DNA from: a virus
Taxonomy: Duplodnaviria > Heunggongvirae > Uroviricota > Caudoviricetes
Length of the DNA: 30,189 nucleotides
Strand: one strand, 5' to 3'
Virus record (IMG/VR): IMGVR_UViG_2663762810_000004
Location: 1 to 30,189 of that record
The translations under genes were made by a program, and so were the position numbers. The notes under the pieces are model-generated. The model saw only the letters and a program-made list of their open reading frames with translations, did not search any database and was not told where the DNA came from. Shown here one piece after another: positions 3,271-25,922 of the stretch (positions are counted from its first letter, which is position 1; each line of letters begins with the position of its first letter).

Positions 3271-3981
3271 GTGTATGGAGCGCAAAGAAGCATGAATCAA
3301 CAAGACCTGAATTTTGTAAGAATAGAATTGCGCCGCGCGCTACCTGACCTCTCTGGGGGAACAAAAGGGCAGCTTGAGGCTTTCAGTGAACACCCACCAG
3401 CAGACAAAAATGCCACCCCGCGCCGTGGAATTCATCTCGTCGAACTCGAAGGAGAGAAGGGGCCTCGCTTTGTTAACTCGCTTTCCGCGCCATTGTATGT
3501 ATTGGAAACACGCAGCCGCTGCAGGCCAATGCCGCCGATAAAAGATGCGGAATTTGAGTCCGCGCCGTGGCGTAGGGCAGTGTCCGCGCTTAGTGGATAC
3601 CAGCAGGCCTGGTTGCGGTACTGCTACGGTTTTGACCTTAGCTATAAGCACCAGGTGATGATGTGTGAATACGTCTGGAAAACTTATCAGAAATGCCTGG
3701 GTGATAATTCCCTTCAGGAGCGCGTAGTAAAGAAACTGATTGGCCTGGTATGGCTGGCAGGGCAGGAAATTGCCGCAACCAGAAATAATGAAACCTATAA
3801 AGACTATGCTGGTGCAGCGTTGGCCCGCATGGTTAGCGTTGATCGTTCGACATGGTTGCGTGTCTATTCAGGGCACTGGGCTGGGTTAAAGGCCGCTTTT
3901 ACCCAGCTTGATGAATCTGCGTTGGCAATGGCTCTTGAATACTATGAGGAAGAAGAAGCCCTCAAAGTGGCAGAAATGTAA
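3271..3981 (+). CDS. Putative late-gene antitermination protein Q-like (QuuQ-type)
   Basis: 236 aa ORF placed between the nin-like gene and a tR'-like terminator ahead of the lysis genes. Family assignment is from gene context and recalled similarity only. Confidence 0.45.
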   Translation: MYGAQRSMNQQDLNFVRIELRRALPDLSGGTKGQLEAFSEHPPADKNATPRRGIHLVELEGEKGPRFVNSLSAPLYVLETRSRCRPMPPIKDAEFESAPWRRAVSALSGYQQAWLRYCYGFDLSYKHQVMMCEYVWKTYQKCLGDNSLQERVVKKLIGLVWLAGQEIAATRNNETYKDYAGAALARMVSVDRSTWLRVYSGHWAGLKAAFTQLDESALAMALEYYEEEEALKVAEM

Positions 3982-4144: not shown

Positions 4145-4996
4145 ATGAAAATAGATAATCCCGAAAATCCACTTGAACGAAACGATTTTTCGATGGATGA
4201 CTTCCATCACTACTTAAGGGAGTTTGATAAAGCTGTATGTGAAGCGAATGCTGTAAGTCAGGGGGTTGGTGTGCGAATGGCTGAGGCTTTTAAAGGGTGG
4301 TCTACATACATTTTTTCACGAATCTGCATTCATGCTTCAATAATGATTTCCAACGTACCAAAATCAAGATGGGCTAAGCGGGATTATGACTTTTGGGATT
4401 TTTCGGCGATTGCACCTCATGTAAGAGCGATTCTGGAAGCTGAGTTATTGTTTATGTATTTATCTGAGAATCCAGATTCAACTGAGGAGTGGTCAGCAAA
4501 GTTGAATGTCATGCACATGAATGATTGTGTAAAGAGAATTGAGTTATTTACATCTAGTGATAATACGAAAGCATTGGATTTTTATCATGAACAAAAAGAT
4601 ATAATAACTGAGAGACTTAATAACAACCCTGTTTTTTTATCCCTTGAACAAGGAACCAGAAAACGTTGCTTGACTGGAAAAGCGCTTATGATTCCAAATC
4701 GAGATGAGTTATTGGTTAAACTGGGAAAAGATCCAAAGTCATTTAAAATAATGTTCGATTTTTTATCTCATTATACGCATATACTACCTATGTCATATTA
4801 TAAAATGGAGCCAAACGGAAGAGGAACTGGTTGTTTTAACAACTATGACTTTGGCTATATGATTATGGGGATGATTATTTGTACTGAATCCTTGACTAAG
4901 TGTACAGATAGATTAGTAGAACTTTTTCCTGATGTTAGACGGTTGCGAAAAGGAACTAAATCAAAATTCACGTTAGGTCCTAAACCTACAAAATAA
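4145..4996 (+). CDS. AT-rich hypothetical cargo protein (283 aa)
   Basis: Long ORF in a distinctly AT-rich block between the Q terminator and the lysis cassette. No recognisable family. Confidence 0.6.
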   Translation: MKIDNPENPLERNDFSMDDFHHYLREFDKAVCEANAVSQGVGVRMAEAFKGWSTYIFSRICIHASIMISNVPKSRWAKRDYDFWDFSAIAPHVRAILEAELLFMYLSENPDSTEEWSAKLNVMHMNDCVKRIELFTSSDNTKALDFYHEQKDIITERLNNNPVFLSLEQGTRKRCLTGKALMIPNRDELLVKLGKDPKSFKIMFDFLSHYTHILPMSYYKMEPNGRGTGCFNNYDFGYMIMGMIICTESLTKCTDRLVELFPDVRRLRKGTKSKFTLGPKPTK

Positions 4997-5214: not shown

Positions 5215-5877
5215 TTATGAAGAGAGCAGCATGACTTTTTCTTTTGCGGGCGAAGGTGACTGCTCTTTCAAAGGGAAAATTATAAATGCTATAAATGCAG
5301 TAAATAATACTATGAAAGCTAGCACTGTAACTTTCCTTGAAGATGATAGGGCTTTGTTATATTCCTTGGCTATTTTGTTCGTTATATGGATCTTAGTGCT
5401 ATTTATTTCATCTTTTAGTATGGATAATTTATTTATAAATTCCTGTGTTTCTTCTCGAGAGTAAAGTTCTGAAGCATCTCTTGGGGTTTCATGTGGATGC
5501 CGAGTATAACCAAGTATTTGTGGTATTAAATTACCATGCGATTGAACTACAGATTCATATTTCTTATAGCAAGCATTATCAAAAAATCTCATTCTTATGC
5601 TAAGTTCTCTGAGTTTGTCAACGTCTAGAGAAACTTGTTCGTTGGCAATAATTAAATCTCCGCGGTTTAATGTATTCTTGTGTTGAAAAATTAGTAAAAG
5701 CCATTCTGTATTATTGTAAAGCTTTTCAAGATTGGCATGTATATCAAGTCCGAGTTTTTCATATGCGGATAATTTGACCTCTTTTTCCTTTGCAGAAAGA
5801 GAAGATGAATAAGCCAGTAATCCGCTTATTATGGCAACAATAAATGTTCCTATAATGGTTAAGGTATTCGAGTCCAT
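5215..5877 (-). CDS. AT-rich hypothetical membrane protein. Start taken at the internal Met (MDSNTLTII) at 5875-5877; the ORF track extends to 5934.
   Basis: Hydrophobic segments at both the N terminus (IIGTFIVAIISGLLAY) and C terminus (VLAFIVLFTAFIAFIIF). Convergent with the 4145-4996 gene. Confidence 0.5.
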   Translation of the reverse strand: MDSNTLTIIGTFIVAIISGLLAYSSSLSAKEKEVKLSAYEKLGLDIHANLEKLYNNTEWLLLIFQHKNTLNRGDLIIANEQVSLDVDKLRELSIRMRFFDNACYKKYESVVQSHGNLIPQILGYTRHPHETPRDASELYSREETQEFINKLSILKDEINSTKIHITNKIAKEYNKALSSSRKVTVLAFIVLFTAFIAFIIFPLKEQSPSPAKEKVMLLSS

Positions 5878-5984
5878 TGTATTCTTCAAAAGTTGGTCAA
5901 AAATATATTGTAATATTTTAATGTATAAAATCAATCATTTCCCCTCATTCTGAGAGGACTCACAGCAACAAAGAGGGGGGCTAA

Positions 5985-6371
5985 ATGTCCGATCCGATTT
6001 CCGGTTCTGGGATGGCTGGTGGTGTCCTGACGGGGGCCAGCGTCTATGGATTTCTGTCCGGAACCGATTACGGCGTGGTGTTTGGCGCATTTGCCGGGGC
6101 TGTATTTTACATTGCAACCGCAGCGGATCTAAGTGCAGCGCGCCGACTGGCATATTTTCTGGTGTCGTATATTGCGGGGATCCTTTGTTCCGGGCTGGTG
6201 GGTTCAAAGCTGGCTCAGGCTACCGGCTACAGTGATAAACCACTGGATGCCATTGGCGCCGTAATCGTTTCTGCTTTAGCCGTCAAAATCCTGACATTCC
6301 TGAATAATCAGGATGTCGGCTCGCTGGTGGCGCTGATAACGCGCCGGGGAGGTTCAGGTGGTACAAAATGA
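5985..6371 (+). CDS. Putative holin-like membrane protein
   Basis: 128 aa Gly/Ala-rich protein with several hydrophobic segments, directly upstream of the endolysin. SD-like GAGGGGGG lies upstream of the ATG. Confidence 0.5.
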   Translation: MSDPISGSGMAGGVLTGASVYGFLSGTDYGVVFGAFAGAVFYIATAADLSAARRLAYFLVSYIAGILCSGLVGSKLAQATGYSDKPLDAIGAVIVSALAVKILTFLNNQDVGSLVALITRRGGSGGTK

Positions 6372-6639
6372 CCCATCGGCAACTTTTAATGCATTGCTTT
6401 GTGCTGGGGTAGTGTTAACCCTGATGTTTTACCGTCGCGGCGACTCGCGACATCGACCGTGGATATCTCGCTTAGCGTGGCTGCTTACGGTCATCTACAG
6501 CGCCGTTCCGCTGGCGTATCTGTGCGGTATTTACCCGTACTCATCATGGGCCACTATCGGGGCCAACTTTATTTTCCTGTCCGTGCTGGTCGCCGTAAGA
6601 GGCAACGTGGCACGTCTGGTTGATCATCTGAGGCACTAA
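6358..6639 (+). CDS. Putative second holin/antiholin-like membrane protein
   Basis: 93 aa with 2-3 hydrophobic segments; overlaps the previous gene's end and abuts the endolysin start. Confidence 0.45.
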   Translation: MVQNDPSATFNALLCAGVVLTLMFYRRGDSRHRPWISRLAWLLTVIYSAVPLAYLCGIYPYSSWATIGANFIFLSVLVAVRGNVARLVDHLRH

Positions 6640-7253
6640 TGAACCAATCACAATTTCAGCAGGCGGCTGGTATCAGCGCCGGGCTTTCTGCGCGCTGGTT
6701 TCCGCACATTGACGCGGCAATGAAAGAGTTTGGCATTACAGCTACGAACGATCTGGCTATGTTCATCGCCCAGGTTGGGCATGAGTCTGCTGGCTTTACC
6801 TCGCTGGTGGAAAGCTTCAACTACTCGGTAGAGGGGCTGAAGAAAACCTTTGGTAAACGGCTTACTCCTTATCAGTGTGAAATGCTGGGTCGTGTCGATG
6901 GTAAGCAGGTGGCCCACCAGCCGCAAATAGCCAATCTGGTTTATGGTGACCGCATGGGGAATAACAGCCAGGGTGACGGCTGGAAATATCGCGGTCGCGG
7001 CCTGCTGCAAATCACGGGTCGTGAGAACTACACCAAATGCGGCACGGCGCTGAAACTTGACCTTATCAGTACGCCAGAATTGCTAACGCAAGAGCGACAT
7101 GCGGCTCGTTCGGCTGCGTGGTACTTCACGTTACGCGGTTGCCTGATGTATTCGGGTGACGTGGCACGCGTTACGCAGATTATTAACGGCGGACAGAACG
7201 GCATTAAAGACCGCCGTGAACGTTACGCCAAAGCTAAAGCTGCACTGGTGTGA
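6639..7253 (+). CDS. Endolysin, glycoside hydrolase family 19 (chitinase-like lysozyme)
   Basis: Contains the GH19 endolysin hallmark FIAQVGHESAGF and NYTKCG/LLQITGRENY motifs; sits between holin-like and spanin genes. Confidence 0.9.
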   Translation: MNQSQFQQAAGISAGLSARWFPHIDAAMKEFGITATNDLAMFIAQVGHESAGFTSLVESFNYSVEGLKKTFGKRLTPYQCEMLGRVDGKQVAHQPQIANLVYGDRMGNNSQGDGWKYRGRGLLQITGRENYTKCGTALKLDLISTPELLTQERHAARSAAWYFTLRGCLMYSGDVARVTQIINGGQNGIKDRRERYAKAKAALV

Positions 7254-7260
7254 GGTCAGT

Positions 7261-7530
7261 ATGGGGCTTGAAATGATTATCGGCCTGGTTGTTGCTGTGC
7301 TGGCTGCAATTGCAGGTGCTTTTGGGCTGGGCAAATCACGCGGTACCAGTATCGCTGAAACAAAAGCGGACCAACAACGCACTGAAGAACGTGCAATAGC
7401 TATTGAAGCGGTTGCAGAACGCCGGGTAGAAACAACAAAAGGAGCCAGGGATGTACAACAGACTGTTAACCATATGCCTGATGACGCTGCTGATCGCGAG
7501 CTGCGCAAAAACTGGACACGTAAGGATTGA
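7261..7530 (+). CDS. i-spanin (Rz-like). Start taken at the internal Met (MGLEMIIGL) at 7261; the ORF track begins at 7156.
   Basis: N-terminal TM helix (IIGLVVAVLAAIAGAF) followed by a charged helical region, immediately after the endolysin. Confidence 0.6.
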   Translation: MGLEMIIGLVVAVLAAIAGAFGLGKSRGTSIAETKADQQRTEERAIAIEAVAERRVETTKGARDVQQTVNHMPDDAADRELRKNWTRKD

Positions 7531-7672
7531 GGTTATTGACACCGGCTGCGATTGGGTAAAACCCATCTACGGCACTGCTCATGATTGGGAAGTGCTGGAC
7601 AGGCAGACCAAGAAAGACATTCTTATGCATAACAAAGTGTGGATGTCAAACTGTGGCTCTATAACTTATTGA
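7451..7672 (+). CDS. o-spanin (Rz1-like outer-membrane lipoprotein), overlapped type
   Basis: Signal peptide with lipobox LIASC. Begins in the +1 frame inside the i-spanin gene and extends beyond it. Confidence 0.6.
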   Translation: MYNRLLTICLMTLLIASCAKTGHVRIEVIDTGCDWVKPIYGTAHDWEVLDRQTKKDILMHNKVWMSNCGSITY

Positions 7673-8322
7673 TTTTGTTTTTTGTTGTCTACCATATCAG
7701 GCAATGTGAAGGCATATAGAAGAAATACTTCGGTGAAACCAATCATTTCTTGAGCATCTTCTTTTGAAAATTCTTCATCAGAATGAACTGCTCCATTGGA
7801 ATCGATTCGAACTATATGTGCCCATTCCCTCATTTGATCTGTAATCAGTCCCTTAGCATGCAACATAGAAATCCGTTTAACCAATTTTTCATCTTTTGAG
7901 TCATTTCCCAGTAACTCCCGTGTAGCAATGTCCAAGACTTTACGGCAAAGCATAACGGATGTGTCGAAACGACAGCGCCCTAAGTTGTCTTTTGCTTCTA
8001 TGAAAGCCATAGCAGCACGTGGCGGAGTGTGTTCGGGGGCGTTAAGGAGGGTGGGTTTCGGGATGATATCAATCAACTGGTACTCAGTATTTCCAGGAAT
8101 GATTACGTTTACATCATTATTTTGCCTAGATTTTGCACGAGGTAAATAACCACCGGGATTATTCATTTTTACAATAGCAATACCTGATTGAAAACAGCTT
8201 CGACAACAAAATGCAATATTAACTAAAGGCCCGGCGTTGATACGCAGTTCTGCCCATCCTTCAAGGACAGCATTTTCCCTCAGACAATGTGGGCAAGTGA
8301 TATCGAAAGTGAGAATTCGCAT
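7666..8322 (-). CDS. DUF4145-like protein with N-terminal Cys cluster (candidate abortive-infection/defence gene). Start taken at MRILTFD (8320-8322).
   Basis: C-terminal region (RKVLDIATRELLG...HAKGLITDQMREWAHIVRIDSNGAVH) matches the recalled DUF4145 helical signature. N-terminal CPHC...CCRSC suggests a zinc ribbon. Lies in the moron slot between lysis and packaging genes. Confidence 0.6.
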   Translation of the reverse strand: MRILTFDITCPHCLRENAVLEGWAELRINAGPLVNIAFCCRSCFQSGIAIVKMNNPGGYLPRAKSRQNNDVNVIIPGNTEYQLIDIIPKPTLLNAPEHTPPRAAMAFIEAKDNLGRCRFDTSVMLCRKVLDIATRELLGNDSKDEKLVKRISMLHAKGLITDQMREWAHIVRIDSNGAVHSDEEFSKEDAQEMIGFTEVFLLYAFTLPDMVDNKKQNQ

Positions 8323-9067
8323 GACTCTACTCCATACATTAAAAGAAATTGAAAATGAATTACACAATGCACAACGACCTGAGTCTACACTCCTTCAACG
8401 ATATGAAGTATCGAATGAGATTAAAAAAAAGGAGTTTGTAGTCGCTTTGATCGGTAAACTGATAGAATTGGACCGCCGTCTCTATGTCACATCATTGAAG
8501 CCTTAGTTTCAATTTTACCGATTTATCGCTTAAGGGGTAGGACTTCAACACTACTAAGTGAGCATTGCAGCAGGCATTCAGGGGAATGCTGTGACAGTAG
8601 TTAGCTAGGGTAAACCGTTTGCGCCTGGGGATTTTACTTTGCGACGGAAAATTAAAAAACTATATGATTTCTTATCCCACTAGGATGTCTGCGGACTACT
8701 ACTGACTGTTTAGGCTATTACGAGGGGCTCAAACTCAACGTCTGGCATCAACGCAGAACTGAAAAAGTCGCCATGAATGTGGTTACGGTATTTGGTGGGA
8801 TATAAACGTACCTTCATTTCTAAGCTTGATAATCACCTTTGTCCGAATTGCCTACGCGATAGTCATGTAGTTTTAGTCATAACCGTTTACCCTATTGATG
8901 TCAAGATAAATTGGATAACACTGATGAATCGAACCTCTAAATCCTTTGATGGGCCACTCATAGCTGACTGGTTCAAAAAAGTGTTATCAATGGTATGATA
9001 AGTTGAGATGAAAGGTGTAAATGAACTATAATAATTCAACAGTTAATCTGAGAAAAATGGATTATGT

Positions 9068-9337
9068 ATGTCGAATGTAAAAAAAATAGATGCTATAGTT
9101 CAAAATTTATTTGAATTCAGAGATGCTACAGGTGAACTTACGGATAAAAATATTGTTTTAATACAAAAAATCATAACGAACTTACCTGACTATGCTGGTA
9201 AGGATCCATATGAATTTTATTCATCATTTTCTGAAGATATTAATGAGTCGCTCAAAGCAATTGCCAATTATCATAAGGCACATGCTAAATACATTAATGC
9301 CCTCGATAAATTAGCAGAGCTTAGGTCGGAGGGGTAA
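9068..9337 (+). CDS. AT-rich hypothetical small protein (first gene of a two-gene cargo operon)
   Basis: 89 aa ORF in an AT-rich block; the next gene starts 3 nt after its stop. Confidence 0.5.
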   Translation: MSNVKKIDAIVQNLFEFRDATGELTDKNIVLIQKIITNLPDYAGKDPYEFYSSFSEDINESLKAIANYHKAHAKYINALDKLAELRSEG

Positions 9338-9339
9338 TA

Positions 9340-9717
9340 ATGGCTACGGAAGATATTCAGGCTTTGTTATCTAAAGTTAATGCGTTAAGATTTGAAGATA
9401 AAAGAATAGAGAAGGAAACAGGAGAGATTGAAAATGAAATTCAGGCTCAATTTCTTCGTGATGGTAAAACAAGGAGTACATTAACCATAACATTTATGAG
9501 AGGCTTTTTTGGTCTTATCGTTTTTTCTTTTATATTTGTGATAGTTTATAACTATTGCGCAGTGCAATGGGTACTTCAATTACAAAGCAAAGGGCTCATG
9601 GAGGCTTCTAAAAGTATCGCACTACTTGAGTTAGATAAGGTGTTATCTATTATGGTTAGTGCGTTAGGAACATCTCTTGGGTTTATAATTGGCTATTATT
9701 TTAAAGACAAAAAATAA
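9340..9717 (+). CDS. AT-rich hypothetical membrane protein (second gene of the two-gene cargo operon)
   Basis: N-terminal predicted coiled-coil (EDIQALLSKVNALRFEDKRIEKETGEIENEIQAQ) followed by a TM helix (FFGLIVFSFIFVIVYNY). Confidence 0.5.
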   Translation: MATEDIQALLSKVNALRFEDKRIEKETGEIENEIQAQFLRDGKTRSTLTITFMRGFFGLIVFSFIFVIVYNYCAVQWVLQLQSKGLMEASKSIALLELDKVLSIMVSALGTSLGFIIGYYFKDKK

Positions 9718-9790
9718 ATAATTTAATTTTACATTGCTATTTATGTTTTGCTTTTAAGATTTTTAACTTTCTAGATGTAGAGTTATTGTT

Positions 9791-9822
9791 AAAGCACTGG
9801 TATTTGCCAGTGCTTTTTTATT
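9791..9822 (+). terminator. Rho-independent terminator after the 9068-9717 operon
   Basis: AAAGCACTGG-tatttg-CCAGTGCTTTTTTATT: a perfect 10 bp stem plus T-run. Confidence 0.6.
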
Positions 9823-10217
9823 AAAATCCGCGGATTAATGACGGCAATCATGAATACTCCTCCAAAGACTGATCCAACGATACGGGTGTATAAGTCACAC
9901 TTGTTTAATCTGTGATTGATGGCACTATAATTTATGTTGCACAACATAAACTGCCGATGGAGGGAATTGAGTGCTGAGCATGTCAGACATAAGTGTGTTG
10001 TCGAAGGTCTCCTCAGGCATGGTTTCTGCATAACGTCGACACTTGAAAGCCTCCATAATGACAATAAAGTATAAGTATTATCATTATTAATTGTCACTTG
10101 CCGTTGCGACATGCTTGGGCGGCGACCGCCTAAGTTCTCTTTATAAATGAGAAGTTCCCGCTAGCGACCGTTTCTGATTCTTTTTTTCTACTAAGTTTGT
10201 ATCAAATAAACAGGATA

Positions 10218-10586
10218 ATGCCGATGCCAGCACGAGCAAAGCGTCCATGCCGGCACAAGGGCTGTGCGGCAGTTACCAACGATGCCAGTGGCTATTGTGA
10301 TCAACACCGACAGCGGCATGCTGGTGATGGCTGGCGTAACTATCAGGCAGGAAAGAGCAGGCAGGAACGTGGATATGGGCGGACCTGGGAAATTAAACGG
10401 GTGCGTATCCTTCAGCGTGATAAGTACCTGTGTCAGAACCATCGCCGGCAGAAGATTGCAAAAAAGGCGACCAGCGTTGACCACATCATTCCAAAAGCTC
10501 ATGGCGGTACTGATGACGATTTCAATCTTGAGTCGTTGTGCTGGGACTGCCACAGAGCGAAGACGGCAAGAGAGCGTATCCGATGA
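10218..10586 (+). CDS. Phage HNH endonuclease (packaging-associated). Start taken at MPMPARAK (10218).
   Basis: HNH motif (DHIIPKAHGGTDDDFNLESLCWDCH) with N-terminal Cys/His. Position upstream of terminase small subunit is typical of cos-packaging HK97-like modules. Confidence 0.8.
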   Translation: MPMPARAKRPCRHKGCAAVTNDASGYCDQHRQRHAGDGWRNYQAGKSRQERGYGRTWEIKRVRILQRDKYLCQNHRRQKIAKKATSVDHIIPKAHGGTDDDFNLESLCWDCHRAKTARERIR

Positions 10587-10921: not shown

Positions 10922-11356
10922 ATGGCTGGTGGAATTCGATCATCAGGCGGAGGGCGAAAGCCCGTTTTACCTTCAGGACAAAAAAGCAAACTGACCAGAA
11001 TCGCACCTCCCGCTGAGTTAATGGGGGAGAATGCAATAAGACTGTGGAAAACCCAAAGTAAAATTCTGATCGAAAGAGGCGTGTTTGAACTGGAGGATGC
11101 GCCCCTGCTTCTGGCTTACTGCAATGCCTTCCATTTAATGCTTGAAGCTGAAAAATTGCTCTCGTCAAGCCTGACGACCGAAAGTGAAATGGGGGGATTA
11201 AAGAAACATCCCGCCGTTAACATCAGAAATGATTCTGTTTCCCAGATAGCCCGTCTTGGCTCGCTTCTGGGGTTGGATCCACTCAGCCGAATTAGGATGC
11301 GTGGCAGTGGAAATGATCCGGACGACGACGGGAATGAATTTGATGAGTTTGACTGA
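10922..11356 (+). CDS. Terminase small subunit (P27-family-like)
   Basis: 144 aa ORF directly upstream of TerL with an acidic C terminus; family inferred from context and sequence character. Confidence 0.7.
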   Translation: MAGGIRSSGGGRKPVLPSGQKSKLTRIAPPAELMGENAIRLWKTQSKILIERGVFELEDAPLLLAYCNAFHLMLEAEKLLSSSLTTESEMGGLKKHPAVNIRNDSVSQIARLGSLLGLDPLSRIRMRGSGNDPDDDGNEFDEFD

Positions 11357-13077
11357 TGGCTACATATCCGAACGTCAATGCAGCGAACCAGTATGCAAGA
11401 GATGTTGTTGGCGGGAAGATCCTTGCTTGTCAGTTAACTGTGCTTGCCTGTCAAAGACACCTTGATGATTTGGAACGTGCGAAGGATCCTGCCTGGCCTT
11501 ACCGGTTTGATAAAAACAAGGCCGAGCGATTTTTGCGCTTTGCTCAGAAGATGCCTCATACGGCCGGTGAATGGGCCAGGAAGAAACTACGAATAGAATT
11601 TGAGCCCTGGCAAAAGTTTGCCCTTGGTGTGCCATTTGGATGGGTTAATAAGAAGTCCGGATTCCGGCGTTTTTCTGAAATATATATTGAGGTGCCCAGG
11701 AAAAATGGGAAATCCGCAATTGCAGCTGCCGTTGGTAATTATATGTTTTGCGCCGATGGTGAACATGGTGCAGAAGTGTACTGTGGCGCCACTACTGAAA
11801 AACAAGCCTGGAAAGTCTTCTCTCCCGCTCTACAAATGGTAAAAAAACTCCCGGCATTGCGACAAAAATACTCAGTCAAACCCTGGGCGAAGAAAATGAC
11901 CCGTCCGGATGGCTCTGTTTTTGCGCCAGTCATCGGCGATCCTGGTGACGGCGATTCCCCTTCATGTGCAATTATTGATGAATATCACGAGCATCAGACT
12001 GATGCACTTTATACAACGATGACTACCGGGATGGGGGCAAGGGAGCAGCCTGTTACTCTGATTATTACTACAGCGGGTTATGACATTACTTCGCCCTGTT
12101 ACGAGAAGCGTGTGCAGATAGTGGAAATTCTCCGCCGTAACCGGACAGGAGAAGAAAACGAGACAATATTTGGCATTATATACGGTCTGGATGACGATGA
12201 TGACTGGACCAGGCCCGAAGCGCTGATTAAAGCAAATCCCAACTTTGGTGTTTCTGTTAAAGAGCATTTTCTTCGGGCGAAGCAGTTACTGGGAATATCC
12301 AATCCCAGCCAGACTAACAAAATTCTGACCAAGCACTTTAACCGGTGGGTAAGTGCAAAAACGGTTTTTTATGACCTGCAAAGATGGATGGCTGCTGCGG
12401 ATAAAAACCTTAAATTATCTGATTTTGTTGATGAGGATTGCTGGCTGGGTATTGATCTGGCCTCGAAAGTAGACCTGAATGCCGTAGTGCCAGTGTTCAG
12501 GAGAGAGGTTGCTGGTATAACCCATTTTTACTGTGTGGGGCCGCTGTTCTGGGCGCCTGAAGATACAATTTATTCACCAGATCCCACGCTGAAAACCATT
12601 TCTGAACGTTACCAGTCATTTGTGAAACAGGGGGTATTGATACCTACTGAAGGGGCTGAGGTGGATTATCGGTTAATTTTTGAGTCAATTCTTCAGTTAC
12701 GCCAGCAGGTTAAAATTGTCCAGTGCCCGATAGATCCTTACGGGGCAACATCATTGCGCCATCTGCTTGAAGAGGAGGGGCTGGAATCCGTTGAGATCAG
12801 GCAAAATTTTACACATATGAGTGATCCAATGCGTGAAATTGAGGCGGCGCTGGCATCAGGACGCTTTCATCATGACGGTAACCCTATCATGAACTGGTGC
12901 ATCCAGAATGTTATAGGGCGTTACTTACCAGGAAGCGATGACATTGTTCGCCCAGGGAAGGAGAGAAAGCAAAACAAAATAGATGGCGCGGTAGGACTAA
13001 TGATGGGAGTCGGGCGAGCCATGCTGAACGGAACTGTCAGTAAATCGGCTTATGATGAGGAAGATATTACATGTTGA
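11356..13077 (+). CDS. Terminase large subunit
   Basis: 573 aa with Walker A-like VPRKNGKS and Walker B-like AIIDEYHE; Terminase_1-type architecture. Confidence 0.9.
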   Translation: MATYPNVNAANQYARDVVGGKILACQLTVLACQRHLDDLERAKDPAWPYRFDKNKAERFLRFAQKMPHTAGEWARKKLRIEFEPWQKFALGVPFGWVNKKSGFRRFSEIYIEVPRKNGKSAIAAAVGNYMFCADGEHGAEVYCGATTEKQAWKVFSPALQMVKKLPALRQKYSVKPWAKKMTRPDGSVFAPVIGDPGDGDSPSCAIIDEYHEHQTDALYTTMTTGMGAREQPVTLIITTAGYDITSPCYEKRVQIVEILRRNRTGEENETIFGIIYGLDDDDDWTRPEALIKANPNFGVSVKEHFLRAKQLLGISNPSQTNKILTKHFNRWVSAKTVFYDLQRWMAAADKNLKLSDFVDEDCWLGIDLASKVDLNAVVPVFRREVAGITHFYCVGPLFWAPEDTIYSPDPTLKTISERYQSFVKQGVLIPTEGAEVDYRLIFESILQLRQQVKIVQCPIDPYGATSLRHLLEEEGLESVEIRQNFTHMSDPMREIEAALASGRFHHDGNPIMNWCIQNVIGRYLPGSDDIVRPGKERKQNKIDGAVGLMMGVGRAMLNGTVSKSAYDEEDITC

Positions 13078-13249: not shown

Positions 13250-14509
13250 ATGTTCATTCCCCAGATGTTTCGGGGTAAATCTCAGTCTGGTGGTGGTTTC
13301 TGGCAGGCGATGCTGGGTGGGGTGAGTTCCAGCCAGAGCAAGGCGGGGATCATTATCACTCCTGAAACCGCACTGGCGTTATCGGCGGTCCGGGCATGCG
13401 TAACGCTTCTGGCAGAATCGGTGGCGCAGTTGCCGTGTGAACTTTACAGGCGAGGCGCTAACGGAGGCCGTGAACGGGCGACTGACCACCCTGTTTATGA
13501 TCTGATTCATTCCCAGCCCAACAAAAAAGACACCTCGTTTGAATACTTTGAGCAGCAACAGGGCCTGCTCGGGCTGGAGGGAAATTGCTACTCGATCATC
13601 GACAGGGACGGGAAAGGGTATCCCCGCGAATTAATCCCGGTTAATCCCAAAAAAGTCATCGTCCTGAAAGGGCCTGACGGGATGCCCTATTATGAACTCC
13701 CCGAAATTGGCGAAACGTTGCCAATGCGCATGATGCATCATGTGAAGGTTTTCTCGCTGGATGGTTATATCGGTAGCTCTCCGATCCAGACGAACGCAGA
13801 CGTTCTTGGGCTGAACCTGGCCGTTGAAGAGCATGCTTCTCAGGTTTTTCGCCGTGGCACAACGATGAGCGGCGTTATTGAGCGACCAAAGGAGGCTCCG
13901 ACAATAAAGAACCAGGAGAAGATTGACCAACTTCTTGCTAAATGGACGGATCGTTATTCCGGTATGCGTAATGCCTTTTCTGTCGCATTGCTTCAGGAAG
14001 GGATGAGCTACAAACAGCTATCTCAGGATAATGAGAAAGCGCAGCTGTTGCAGTCCCGCCAGTGGGGCGTGGAGGAAGTTTGCCGACTCTATAAAATCCC
14101 GCCTCATATGGTGCAGATGCTGGCGAAAGCCACAAATAACAACATTGAGCATCAGGGGCTGCAGTTCGTCATGTATACGCTTTTAGCCTGGCTGAAACGC
14201 CATGAAGGCGCATTAATGCGCGATCTGCTTTTACCCAGCGAGCGCGGTAGTCTGTACATTGAATTCAATGTATCCGGCCTGCTGCGCGGGGATCAGAAGT
14301 CACGCTATGAATCTTATGCGCTGGGCCGTCAGTGGGGCTGGTTATCGGTTAATGACATTCGCCGCATGGAGAACCTTCCTCCCATCGCCGGTGGGGACAA
14401 ATACCTGACGCCTCTGAATATGGTCGACAGTAAACAAATCTTACCTGGCAATAACGCGCCAACAGCTAAACAACTGGCAGAAATCGAAACTATTCTGGCC
14501 AGAGCCTGA
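13250..14509 (+). CDS. Phage portal protein (HK97-family-like)
   Basis: 419 aa ORF in the canonical position after TerL and before the prohead protease. Confidence 0.8.
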   Translation: MFIPQMFRGKSQSGGGFWQAMLGGVSSSQSKAGIIITPETALALSAVRACVTLLAESVAQLPCELYRRGANGGRERATDHPVYDLIHSQPNKKDTSFEYFEQQQGLLGLEGNCYSIIDRDGKGYPRELIPVNPKKVIVLKGPDGMPYYELPEIGETLPMRMMHHVKVFSLDGYIGSSPIQTNADVLGLNLAVEEHASQVFRRGTTMSGVIERPKEAPTIKNQEKIDQLLAKWTDRYSGMRNAFSVALLQEGMSYKQLSQDNEKAQLLQSRQWGVEEVCRLYKIPPHMVQMLAKATNNNIEHQGLQFVMYTLLAWLKRHEGALMRDLLLPSERGSLYIEFNVSGLLRGDQKSRYESYALGRQWGWLSVNDIRRMENLPPIAGGDKYLTPLNMVDSKQILPGNNAPTAKQLAEIETILARA

Positions 14510-22920: not shown

Positions 22921-22952
22921 ATATGTATTTCACCATCAGGCGGAACAAGTCA

Positions 22953-23333
22953 ATGAGTAAATTCACCACCCCGGCGATACTGGAAATGCTGGGTCATTAC
23001 AAATGGCGGGTGTACGAACCCTTCGAGTTTTACCTCTCGGATGACAACAGCGATGTGATTAAGGTCCCGGCGGGGTTTGTGACCGATCTGGCAAGCGTGC
23101 CCCGGATATTCTGGACATTCCTCCCACCTGATGGGCGGTATGCCAAAGCAGCTATCATTCATGATTACATGTACGATAATGCGCTACGGACAAAGAAAGA
23201 AGCCGATCTCATTTTTCTGGACGGGATGCGGGTACTGGGTGTGCCAGAGTGGAAGCGTTCGGTGATGTACCACGCTGTACGGATGTTTGGTAAAGGGCGG
23301 TATGCGCAGAATAGAACCCTTCCAGGTGTTTAG
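22953..23333 (+). CDS. DUF1353-like small protein, copy 1. Start taken at MSKFTT (22953).
   Basis: Conserved VPAGFVTDLASVPR ... AAIIHDYMYD pattern recalled for DUF1353. Near-identical second copy at 25923-26303 and a decayed copy at 24808. Confidence 0.6.
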   Translation: MSKFTTPAILEMLGHYKWRVYEPFEFYLSDDNSDVIKVPAGFVTDLASVPRIFWTFLPPDGRYAKAAIIHDYMYDNALRTKKEADLIFLDGMRVLGVPEWKRSVMYHAVRMFGKGRYAQNRTLPGV

Positions 23334-23485: not shown

Positions 23486-24370
23486 TTAGCTTTTTGTGAA
23501 ACGGTAAAATAAATTGGGCTCACTGACAATATACAAATTAAATTTGTCATCGATAGTAATGCCCTCTGCTTGTTTAATATCCTTTGTTAATCCCGACCAC
23601 CCTGCATCCAGATAGAGTCGATCGGTAATACGTCCCACAGGATTAACTTCAACCACTATTTTTGATTCATCTGAAAGTATCAGTAGTGAAGATGTTAGAG
23701 GATGGTAATGCAGCCCAGATACATCCTTCAAAGACGAAGTGATAACGGTTGGAAAAATTTTAATATGCGCATCATCATTCTGGGGAAATATTCTGCTAAT
23801 GATTATTGGTATTTTTTCCTTTGCTGAATATAAATGCTGTTTCTCTTTATCCCAGGCCAGTCCTTCCAGTCCGTTGTTTTTGGGAGTGGCGTAATCATTA
23901 AACTTAATCTTCGAAATGACAGTATAACTAAAAGCATGTAAGTCTAATTTTACCATCCAGGCTGTGCTGTTTTTCTCACTTCCTATATAGAATACATCTT
24001 TACCAACCCACTCTACAGCTTCTGTATCCTCAAATTCAGGTAAGGTCATACTTCCCACTCTGTCGCCTTCCTTTGTCAGCCATATCAGTTCTGGTGGGTT
24101 ATTAACAACAGCAAACAGAAGTTTGTGTTTATCTGACCAGGTCAGGCCAGACAGATTATTCTTTACACCTTCAACAGGTTTGCCCTCTATGTCTGCCCGA
24201 TATGCGCTAAGATTAAGGCTTGTTGGGATATCTTCATATTTTTCATATAATCGATAGATATATATTATATCCTTATAGATGTACATAAAACAAACCACAA
24301 AAATAGCCACAAAAATTAAATACCTTAAATATATGCTCAATATTTCATCCAAATAATAAAGTAAAGCCAA
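23486..24370 (-). CDS. AT-rich cargo protein with N-terminal hydrophobic segment and beta-rich body (possibly YjiK/SdiA-regulated-like propeller; unconfirmed)
   Basis: 294 aa ORF in a strongly AT-rich block flanked by the two DUF1353 repeat copies and followed by a terminator. N terminus LIFVAIFVVCFMYIY is hydrophobic; the true start may be a later Met. Confidence 0.6.
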   Translation of the reverse strand: MALLYYLDEILSIYLRYLIFVAIFVVCFMYIYKDIIYIYRLYEKYEDIPTSLNLSAYRADIEGKPVEGVKNNLSGLTWSDKHKLLFAVVNNPPELIWLTKEGDRVGSMTLPEFEDTEAVEWVGKDVFYIGSEKNSTAWMVKLDLHAFSYTVISKIKFNDYATPKNNGLEGLAWDKEKQHLYSAKEKIPIIISRIFPQNDDAHIKIFPTVITSSLKDVSGLHYHPLTSSLLILSDESKIVVEVNPVGRITDRLYLDAGWSGLTKDIKQAEGITIDDKFNLYIVSEPNLFYRFTKS

Positions 24371-25494: not shown

Positions 25495-25890
25495 CTCATC
25501 CCTGAAGGCATACAATGTATTTCACCTGCAGGAAAGGTAAGGCAAGGATCAAGCTCTCATTTTTGAGAAAAATCATAGAACCAAATGAATTTAGGGTAAA
25601 AAAACGCTTCGCCACAAGACAGGATGAAGAGTCAGTCAGAAAACAAGCATAATGAATGCAATCCTACTCATTCCGTACTGTTACTCCACATAGAGGTACA
25701 GTATGTGTTTCATCATCAGTCTGTGAATATCGTGGGTCAAGGAAAGATCAGTATCTCATTTCAGAGCATGAGATGCGTTGGAACAGATAAAAATATAAAA
25801 AAGACCGCTCAATCATGGGAGAGAGCGGTGGAAGAAATTTTGACAATATGACCTACAACCAGCAGGAAAAGAAGAAACCTGCTGGTGTAG
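25495..25890. repeat. Two units of the periodic repeat family, followed by a unit fused to DUF1353 copy 2
   Basis: Motif at 25518 (TATTTCACC), a variant at about 25703 (TGTGTTTCATC) and 25896; CTCTCATTTTTGA at 25555; hairpins at about 25598-25625 and 25795-25827. Confidence 0.6.
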
Positions 25891-25922
25891 AGATTTATTT
25901 CACCAGCAGACGGAATAAGTCA

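Follow-up and report, generated by a model that had tools for sequence, protein, structure and literature searches.

The DNA analysed here (the window; 30,189 nucleotides (nt), positions 1 to 30,189 of the IMG/VR virus record IMGVR_UViG_2663762810_000004, Caudoviricetes) was found to be an HK97-like lambdoid prophage of Escherichia coli. A cargo slot between its lysis cassette and its HNH/terminase genes contains a unit of ~0.8 kb with two open reading frames (ORFs), named ORF1 and ORF2, and proteins identical to ORF1 are present on E. coli assemblies such as GCA_044010595.1. The unit consists of the following features.

9003–9032, plus strand: sigma-70-like promoter TTGAGA-18-TATAAT, matching the consensus at 11/12 positions
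9068–9337, plus strand: ORF1, 89 amino acids (aa), ATG start
9328–9332, plus strand: GGAGG Shine-Dalgarno sequence for ORF2, within the 3′ end of ORF1
9340–9717, plus strand: ORF2, 125 aa, ATG start
9791–9822, plus strand: Rho-independent terminator with an 11-bp stem and a 4-nt loop (9791–9816) and a T-run

The TAA of ORF1 (9335–9337) and the ATG of ORF2 (9340) are separated by 2 nt, and the GGAGG motif, which lies inside the last codons of ORF1, ends 7 nt before this ATG; the translation of ORF2 is predicted to be coupled to that of ORF1. The guanine-plus-cytosine (GC) content over 8801–9800 was found to be 0.31–0.34, as compared with 0.51–0.55 in the lysis genes and 0.48–0.53 from position 10001 onward. 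The promoter was called by matching to the sigma-70 consensus alone and the terminator by folding energy. The hairpin of the terminator had a folding energy of −16.3 kcal/mol (z = −5.2), which was equalled by 0 of 200 shuffled sequences. An earlier reading of this DNA, made from the letters alone (the sequence-only reading), had described two tightly coupled ORFs lying 3 nt apart, which is the same gap counted in another way, a small soluble first protein, a very AT-rich block and a strong terminator of its own, and all these descriptions were borne out. The promoter-like site, which that reading did not contain, was the top one in 8300–10300; its −10 element ends 35 nt ahead of the ORF1 ATG, and none of 200 shuffled versions of the 180 nt upstream scored as high. 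The Rfam scan of 7500–10300 gave no match.

The ORF2 protein contains two hydrophobic segments, spanning residues 47–79 and 100–119, when scanned for Kyte-Doolittle hydropathy above 1.6 in a 19-residue window. The AlphaFold2 model of this protein (predicted local distance difference test (pLDDT) 78.6) has a long helix of residues 3–83, which forms a stalk leading into the first transmembrane segment (TM1), then a short turn and a helix of residues 98–122 that corresponds to the second transmembrane segment (TM2). In the sequence, a variable helix (~1–45) is followed by the conserved stretch RDGKTRSTLT, TM1 (~47–79), a loop of ~20 residues and TM2 (~100–121). ORF2 is predicted with high confidence to be an inner-membrane protein having a cytoplasmic N-terminal helix (~1–45) and then a two-pass hairpin; the hydropathy profile and the AlphaFold2 model correct the coiled coil with a single TM helix that had been assigned to it earlier. 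Basic stretches precede TM1 (RDGKTR) and end the protein on its C-terminal side (KDKK), which is consistent with a predicted N-in/C-in topology. TM1 is strongly hydrophobic and rich in phenylalanine, and TM2 bears a GxxxGxxxG glycine zipper (G110, G114 and G118) together with the residues YYFK, which in all probability act as an interfacial anchor. Such zippers are typical of self-associating and often pore-forming TM helices.

The ORF2 family was found to comprise 132 clusters (90% identity) of proteins of 117–140 aa, all annotated as hypothetical, from Klebsiella, Enterobacter, Raoultella, Serratia, Pantoea, Citrobacter, Proteus, Providencia, Morganella, Xenorhabdus, Edwardsiella and other genera. 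The identity across many genera was 40–70%. The first ~40 residues are variable, and the positions R45, T49, F52, F56, Y70, N71, W77 and L81 as well as the C-terminal stretch G110-TSLGFIIGYYF-K122 (GTSLGFIIGYYFK) are invariant. An exhaustive profile search (expectation value (E) < 1e-3) retrieved 238 clusters (50% identity), all of them small proteins, which have in common the motif TR..(I/L)T..F, the residues YN in TM1 and a C-terminal LGF(I/V)IGYYFK. Furthermore, ORF2 matched phrog_20796, a family of unassigned function, over its full length (E = 4.5e-49).

The ORF1 protein was modelled by AlphaFold2 as an antiparallel two-helix hairpin with helices of residues 3–42 and 47–88 (pLDDT 92.5), and its peak hydropathy of 0.31 in the same 19-residue scan indicated no TM segment. 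A search with the ORF1 sequence alone retrieved nothing but itself. The genomic context was surveyed in 48 related loci collected from genomes and IMG/VR, and each locus having upstream DNA contained a same-strand ORF of 89–163 aa that ended at the start of ORF2. These upstream ORFs form one family with the motifs L..[FY]R on the N-terminal side and [EK]YN.S...DY..A.K.L on the C-terminal side, and ORF1 of the window is a short and divergent member of this family of ~100-aa proteins. When a hidden Markov model (HMM) of the family was run against the 1548 ORFs of these loci, it matched solely the upstream ORFs, and a copy of the window ORF1 in one of the loci (L012) scored 76 bits. The profile of the family retrieved 31 clusters from a large protein database, the window protein among them; the identity across many genera was 15–30%, and a weak match to phrog_21707 was obtained (E = 5e-8), which is also a family of unassigned function. 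The homologues from Xenorhabdus and Providencia (L004, L005, L006, L036 and L037; P0141, P0148 and P0151) have a conserved N-terminal extension of ~40 aa with the hydrophobic segment FFPLFAIWxLWK, and the extension is predicted by gene callers too. This suggests that the Xenorhabdus and Providencia proteins are membrane-anchored versions of the soluble partner, and the presence of such an anchor in some homologues therefore places ORF1 at the membrane. A WXG100-like secreted hairpin was rejected as nothing supported it.

The two genes were not found apart: a gene of the ORF1 family abutted ORF2 in 43/43 loci. The junction was an overlap of 14, 11 or 8 nt (−14, −11 or −8) in 30 loci and a spacing of +1 to +10 nt in the other 13, and GGAGG- or GAGG-like motifs were located in the 3′ end of ORF1 across the loci. 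When the rates of divergence were compared, the mean p-distance was 0.74 for ORF1, 0.78 for residues 1–43 of ORF2 and 0.40 for the membrane part of ORF2; the membrane part, in which TM2 is invariant, evolves at about half the rate of ORF1 and of the N-terminus of ORF2. ORF1 and ORF2 are an obligate pair that defines two new protein families. The sequence-only reading, which had proposed an undescribed accessory system, named as grounds for giving it up the lack of conservation of the pair in other genomes and a clear homology to structural or lysis proteins; the pair was conserved as above, and no such homology was found.

The position of the pair in the window is given by the following neighbouring features.

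3271–3981: Q antiterminator
4145–4996, plus strand: AT-rich cargo ORF, 283 aa (GC of this and the next ORF ~0.33–0.38)
5215–5934, minus strand: AT-rich cargo ORF, 239 aa
5985–6371: Phage_holin_8
6358–6639: Phage_holin_3_7
6639–7253: GH19 endolysin
7156–7530: Rz
7451–7672: Rz1
7666–8367, minus strand: DUF4145 gene (Pfam E = 8e-11; phrog_1305)
8368–9067: stretch of ~700 nt without a conserved gene
10197–10586: HNH endonuclease
10922–11356: small terminase (terS)
11356–13077: large terminase (terL)
13250–14509: portal

At least three slots were found to host the pair in related loci, namely between lysis and terminase genes, between tail chaperone and tape measure genes, and beside the integrase gene. 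In most cases the lysis cassette immediately precedes the pair and the (HNH)-terS-terL-portal genes follow it. The adjoining lysis cassettes represent three or more types that are unrelated to one another (Phage_holin_8/3_7 with GH19 endolysin; holin_2_3 with Phage_lysozyme and Rz; and the lambda-S-type holin_3_1), and the adjoining terminases are also of several types. The slot between tail chaperone and tape measure is used in Proteus and Providencia prophages and is the site of the founding moron, HK97 gene 15 (PMC3594210), and the place beside a lambda-type integrase was seen in three viral contigs. In nearly all enterobacterial loci the GC content of the pair was 0.32–0.39 against 0.47–0.55 in the flanks; the gap 5′ of the pair ranged from 16 to 518 nt and was mostly >60 nt, and a terminator-like hairpin was present 3′ of ORF2 in about two-thirds of the related loci. 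Among 50,697 deposited phage genomes a single one, that of Klebsiella phage P7641, carries the pair, in the same slot as the window, and 1/72,556 plasmids carries it, there within a prophage. Neither the 50,697 phage records nor a set of 5,426 complete E. coli genomes yielded a match in a nucleotide search with 8950–9850. The members of the family in Enterobacterales are essentially found only in prophages, in cargo slots and with foreign composition, and the pair is likely to be dispensable for lytic growth.

According to the criteria of Juhala and Hendrix as summarised in PMC3594210, a moron is extra DNA between genes that are adjacent in related phages, has a deviant base composition, contains its own promoter and terminator and is transcribed while the prophage is repressed. 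The Klebsiella phage ST846-OXA48phi9.1, whose terminase region is of the same type and 76% identical in nucleotide sequence, has no pair between its spanin and HNH/terS genes, and the pair occupies three different slots elsewhere; the composition of the window pair is 0.31–0.34 GC against ~0.5; and a promoter by consensus and a terminator by folding energy bracket it. The use of three slots and the absence from a related phage therefore indicate a mobile moron and not a component of the lysis cassette. We conclude with high confidence that this region is a horizontally mobile, AT-rich and self-contained transcription unit, a moron.

The same slot of the window also houses the DUF4145-like gene that the sequence-only reading had placed there, and the Pfam match confirmed it as real. 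This gene converges on Rz1 and gave weak PADLOC matches to PD-T7-4 (0.0026) and PDC-M16A (0.0076). The sole ORF in the stretch between it and ORF1 (8777–8998, 73 aa) was found only in copies of the same phage. A second terminator-like hairpin of 10 pairs (6 GC), at 10113–10135 on the plus strand, stands between the moron and the packaging genes, ~60 nt 5′ of the HNH gene. Presumably, the cos site follows closely on the HNH gene, because the record of Klebsiella phage P7641 stops at the end of its HNH gene.

Other cargo was observed elsewhere in the window. The ORFs at 4145–4996 and 5215–5934 occupy the slot between Q and the holin, which is the position of the stx genes in Stx phages; the former had a weak sub-threshold DUF5677 match and the latter had no family match, and the two may constitute a second defence-type cargo. 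A sister E. coli prophage (L114) contains ThsB_TIR and Peptidase_C14 genes in its Q-holin slot, and such prophages therefore do bear defence-type cargo. In the tail/late region, an AT-rich cargo gene at 23486–24370 on the minus strand encodes an SdiA-regulated domain protein (PF06977, E = 5e-72) and looks like a further lysogenic-conversion gene. Two DUF1353 paralogues and a Bro-N/P22_AR_C antirepressor-like gene (22923–23333 and 25815–26303 on the plus strand, and 26748–27407 on the minus strand) lie in a region of alternating GC content.

Relatives with the same layout, that is, a helical ORF of 86–106 aa abutting a two-TM "GYYFK" ORF of 110–135 aa, were also found in metagenome contigs from marine, freshwater, soil and host-associated sources. 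The distant relatives share just 25–35% identity. Their upstream partner is beyond the reach of the enterobacterial ORF1 HMM and forms a subfamily of its own (..LF..Y..LV.EVF) of similar size and helical character. One distant copy follows a NinG-like phage gene and one lies by an insertion sequence element. In a root metagenome contig (L061:1025–2014) an SDH_protease/NfeD-like gene lies ~1 kb upstream of the distant pair, and the two are separated by a 293-aa gene that belongs to no known family. In some very distant lineages (Parcubacteria, Dojkabacteria and others; L010:462–770, L011:5569–5811, L109:7655–7882 and L095:2193–2510) the upstream partner resembles, by eye, a small ribbon-helix-helix or helix-turn-helix (HTH) DNA-binding protein, an arrangement reminiscent of toxin-antitoxin operons. 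The module recurs widely in the environment and is therefore old and not intrinsically phage-specific, and the enterobacterial phages appear to have captured it. The same pattern of phage copies plus chromosomal relatives is known for HK97 gp15 and YebO (PMC3594210).

The cassette belongs to a familiar kind, namely prophage cargo encoding small membrane proteins. We tentatively consider it a module for phage exclusion or abortive infection that would act at the membrane, with ORF1 as the regulator of ORF2, a glycine-zipper membrane effector, a reading to which we give somewhat less than even weight. We infer a mechanism in which the fast-evolving ORF1 would bind, on the cytoplasmic side of the membrane, the N-terminal helix of ORF2, which evolves equally fast, and would thereby control the slowly evolving membrane domain; the latter might oligomerise by way of its glycine zipper and so disturb the integrity or the potential of the membrane, and the module, if expressed from the prophage, would exclude or abort infection by other phages. 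The division into a regulator and an effector would be in line with the p-distance contrast and with the membrane-anchored ORF1 homologues. The neighbouring DUF4145 gene and the defence-type cargo of the sister prophage L114 also speak for this reading.

The RexA/RexB system of phage lambda is likewise a two-gene prophage unit with one cytoplasmic and one inner-membrane protein, a layout that is kept here in 43 loci, and the proposed logic of a soluble sensor or regulator controlling a membrane effector would be shared by analogy and not by homology. RexB has four TM segments and RexA has 279 aa; the present pair consists of a protein with two TMs and an 89-aa hairpin, and it is neither located in the immunity region nor transcribed together with the repressor. 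A soluble-plus-membrane layout is also known from the two-gene prophage defence of actinobacteriophages, as in Gordonia phage CarolAnn, and is analogous although the proteins are unrelated (PMC6426606). HK97 gp15 is similarly a small inner-membrane protein whose AT-rich moron has a promoter and a terminator of its own (PMC3594210), but it is a single protein of 62 aa, whereas an obligate pair without homology to it is found here.

Several results weigh against the exclusion or abortive-infection reading. No match was obtained in Pfam or NCBIfam for ORF1, ORF2 or 24 diverse relatives of ORF2, and none in PADLOC-DB v2.0.0 for ORF1 or ORF2 at E ≤ 1; the sequence-profile search of PDB and the Foldseek searches of PDB and BFVD returned just generic helical hairpins or noise. 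Profile comparison by hhalign gave probabilities of 0.4% for ORF2 against RexB, 0.2% for ORF1 against RexA and 0.3% for ORF2 against HK97 gp15. The earlier statement that neither protein belongs to a recognised family thus held, with the two PHROGs of unassigned function as the only matches, and membership in these yields no mechanism. Likewise, no description of the family was found when the literature was searched for the C-terminal motif or for similar membrane modules of two genes. In a mirror-tree style test, the divergence of ORF1 tracked both halves of ORF2 equally (r = 0.74 and 0.75), so that no co-evolution signal points specifically to an interaction of ORF1 with the ORF2 N-terminus. 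Furthermore, the promoter-like sites upstream of ORF1 in other loci were not above shuffled controls, save in the window and a few loci, and in several phages the pair begins only 16–76 nt after Rz. In view of the chance-level promoter signals elsewhere and the proximity to Rz, lysogenic expression cannot be generalised and the pair is possibly expressed late in those phages; the predicted signals make expression in the lysogen probable for the window alone. Finally, in a 1.24-Mb environmental contig (L102:6714–10305) the gene order is S10-NUDIX-ORF1-ORF2-YtxH-L3-L4, and in an alphaproteobacterial metagenome-assembled genome the pair adjoins a gene read by eye as ribosomal protein L9. Such chromosomal settings fit a cellular membrane role better than defence, and the occurrence of distant members in ordinary chromosomal neighbourhoods means that an anti-phage role is not the sole reading.

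According to an alternative built on these settings, the pair is a cellular membrane module outside phage defence, for example a factor in envelope stress or membrane homeostasis, or an addiction pair of the toxin-antitoxin type, which phages carry as lysogenic-conversion or selfish cargo. The location of distant pairs among housekeeping genes, with the NUDIX synteny repeated in a second contig (two NUDIX genes beside the pair in L110:7577–9258) and the L9-like neighbour, speaks for it, as do the ribbon-helix-helix/HTH-like appearance of some distant partners and the arrangement of overlapping genes in which a small protein is encoded ahead of a membrane protein, which is the operon logic typical of toxin-antitoxin systems. 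It is, however, countered by the near restriction of the Enterobacterales copies to prophages, where they occupy cargo slots and have foreign composition; the Pfam and NCBIfam searches matched no known toxin or antitoxin family, and the function of relatives that are only 25–35% identical may differ. We regard this alternative as unlikely.

Superinfection exclusion at the step of DNA injection was the other possibility of this order. Here, ORF2 would block the channel formed by the tape-measure or ejection proteins of incoming siphophages, as HK97 gp15, T4 Imm and P22 SieA do, ORF1 would be a stabiliser or assembly factor, and the cell would survive. To our knowledge, the injection-blocking superinfection exclusion proteins of Gram-negative phages work as single proteins, unlike the present pair in which the cytoplasmic partner is always present. 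The predicted nature of ORF2 as a small inner-membrane protein on a moron is in favour of such a block, and so are the presence of the Proteus and Providencia pair in the exact slot of HK97 gene 15 and the existence of non-phage chromosomal relatives, as for gp15/YebO (PMC3594210). The pair has no homology to gp15, and the TM2 motif is kept in very distant bacteria, which argues against the recognition of an entry factor specific to enterobacteria. The probability of this explanation is considered to be low.

A late-expressed lytic accessory was regarded as improbable. It could be a holin/antiholin-like pair that tunes lysis timing, with ORF2 as a class II-like pore and ORF1 as its inhibitor in the cytoplasm, much as T4 rIII acts on holin T, or a factor in the membrane that shields the progeny phage or the cell undergoing lysis. 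Class II holins and pinholins (S21 68/71; T4 holin T with rIII) are likewise small two-TM proteins with a glycine-zipper-type TM2, usually encoded beside lysis genes, and ORF2, with two TMs and a glycine-zipper TM2, resembles the pinholin-type architecture as generally known; as a small cytoplasmic helical partner, ORF1 could act on the cytoplasmic N-terminus of ORF2. Most copies immediately follow Rz/Rz1 on the same strand, within the Q-dependent late operon (in some cases 16–76 nt after Rz), and this location and the chance-level promoter signals outside the window are consistent with late expression. Pinholins, however, have a Gly/Ala-rich TM1 that leaves the membrane, whereas TM1 of ORF2 is Phe-rich and strongly hydrophobic, and the 45-residue cytoplasmic helix of ORF2 is atypical of holins. 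The window already has a full cassette (Phage_holin_8, Phage_holin_3_7, GH19 endolysin and Rz/Rz1), from which the pair is separated by the converging DUF4145 gene and ~700 nt, and the pair is bracketed by a promoter and terminator of its own. Being autonomous and mobile, the unit turns up in the tail operon and beside int as well, and it is missing from the related phage and from all but 1/50,697 sequenced phages. Its composition is unlike that of the lysis genes, and no holin-family similarity was detected: the Pfam holin families were matched neither by ORF2 nor by its 24 diverse relatives, and hhalign against the Phage_holin_8 and Phage_holin_3_7 proteins of the window gave probabilities <1%. 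On this last result a diverged copy of the window holins was rejected as well. A part of the lysis cassette or a spanin was also rejected, as the window cassette is complete without the pair, the tail and int slots host the pair too, and a lipobox is lacking.

Chance open frames in AT-rich non-coding DNA, as the AT-richness, the short ORFs and the lack of matches in the curated family library might suggest, are refuted by the conservation data: both proteins recur in many genera, their motifs include invariant ones, and the two genes keep their order and their overlapping junctions. The confident structure predictions for both proteins further oppose this explanation, which is practically dismissed.

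The exclusion or abortive-infection reading can be widened into an evolutionary scenario, which we consider conceivable but doubtful. The pair would be an ancient, widespread and undescribed two-component membrane module that is chromosomal in candidate-phyla-radiation-like and environmental bacteria and was repeatedly captured as a moron by the temperate phages of enterobacteria; in lysogens it would constitute a RexAB-independent class of pore-type abortive infection or exclusion in which the fast-evolving hairpin in the cytoplasm gates the conserved hairpin that forms the pore.

The morons of temperate phages are a main source of lysogenic-conversion and anti-phage functions, and most of them are unassigned. 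The cassette is widespread in clinically relevant Enterobacterales, namely E. coli, Klebsiella, Enterobacter, Serratia, Proteus and Providencia, and its invariant glycine-zipper TM together with the hypervariable partner provides clear mutational targets that are easily testable. If the pair is a true exclusion or abortive-infection system, it would represent a new and minimal class of membrane effector, with a possible effect on the host range of phages used in therapy. If it is a membrane-homeostasis module instead, the phage-borne copies would represent a new kind of lysogenic conversion.

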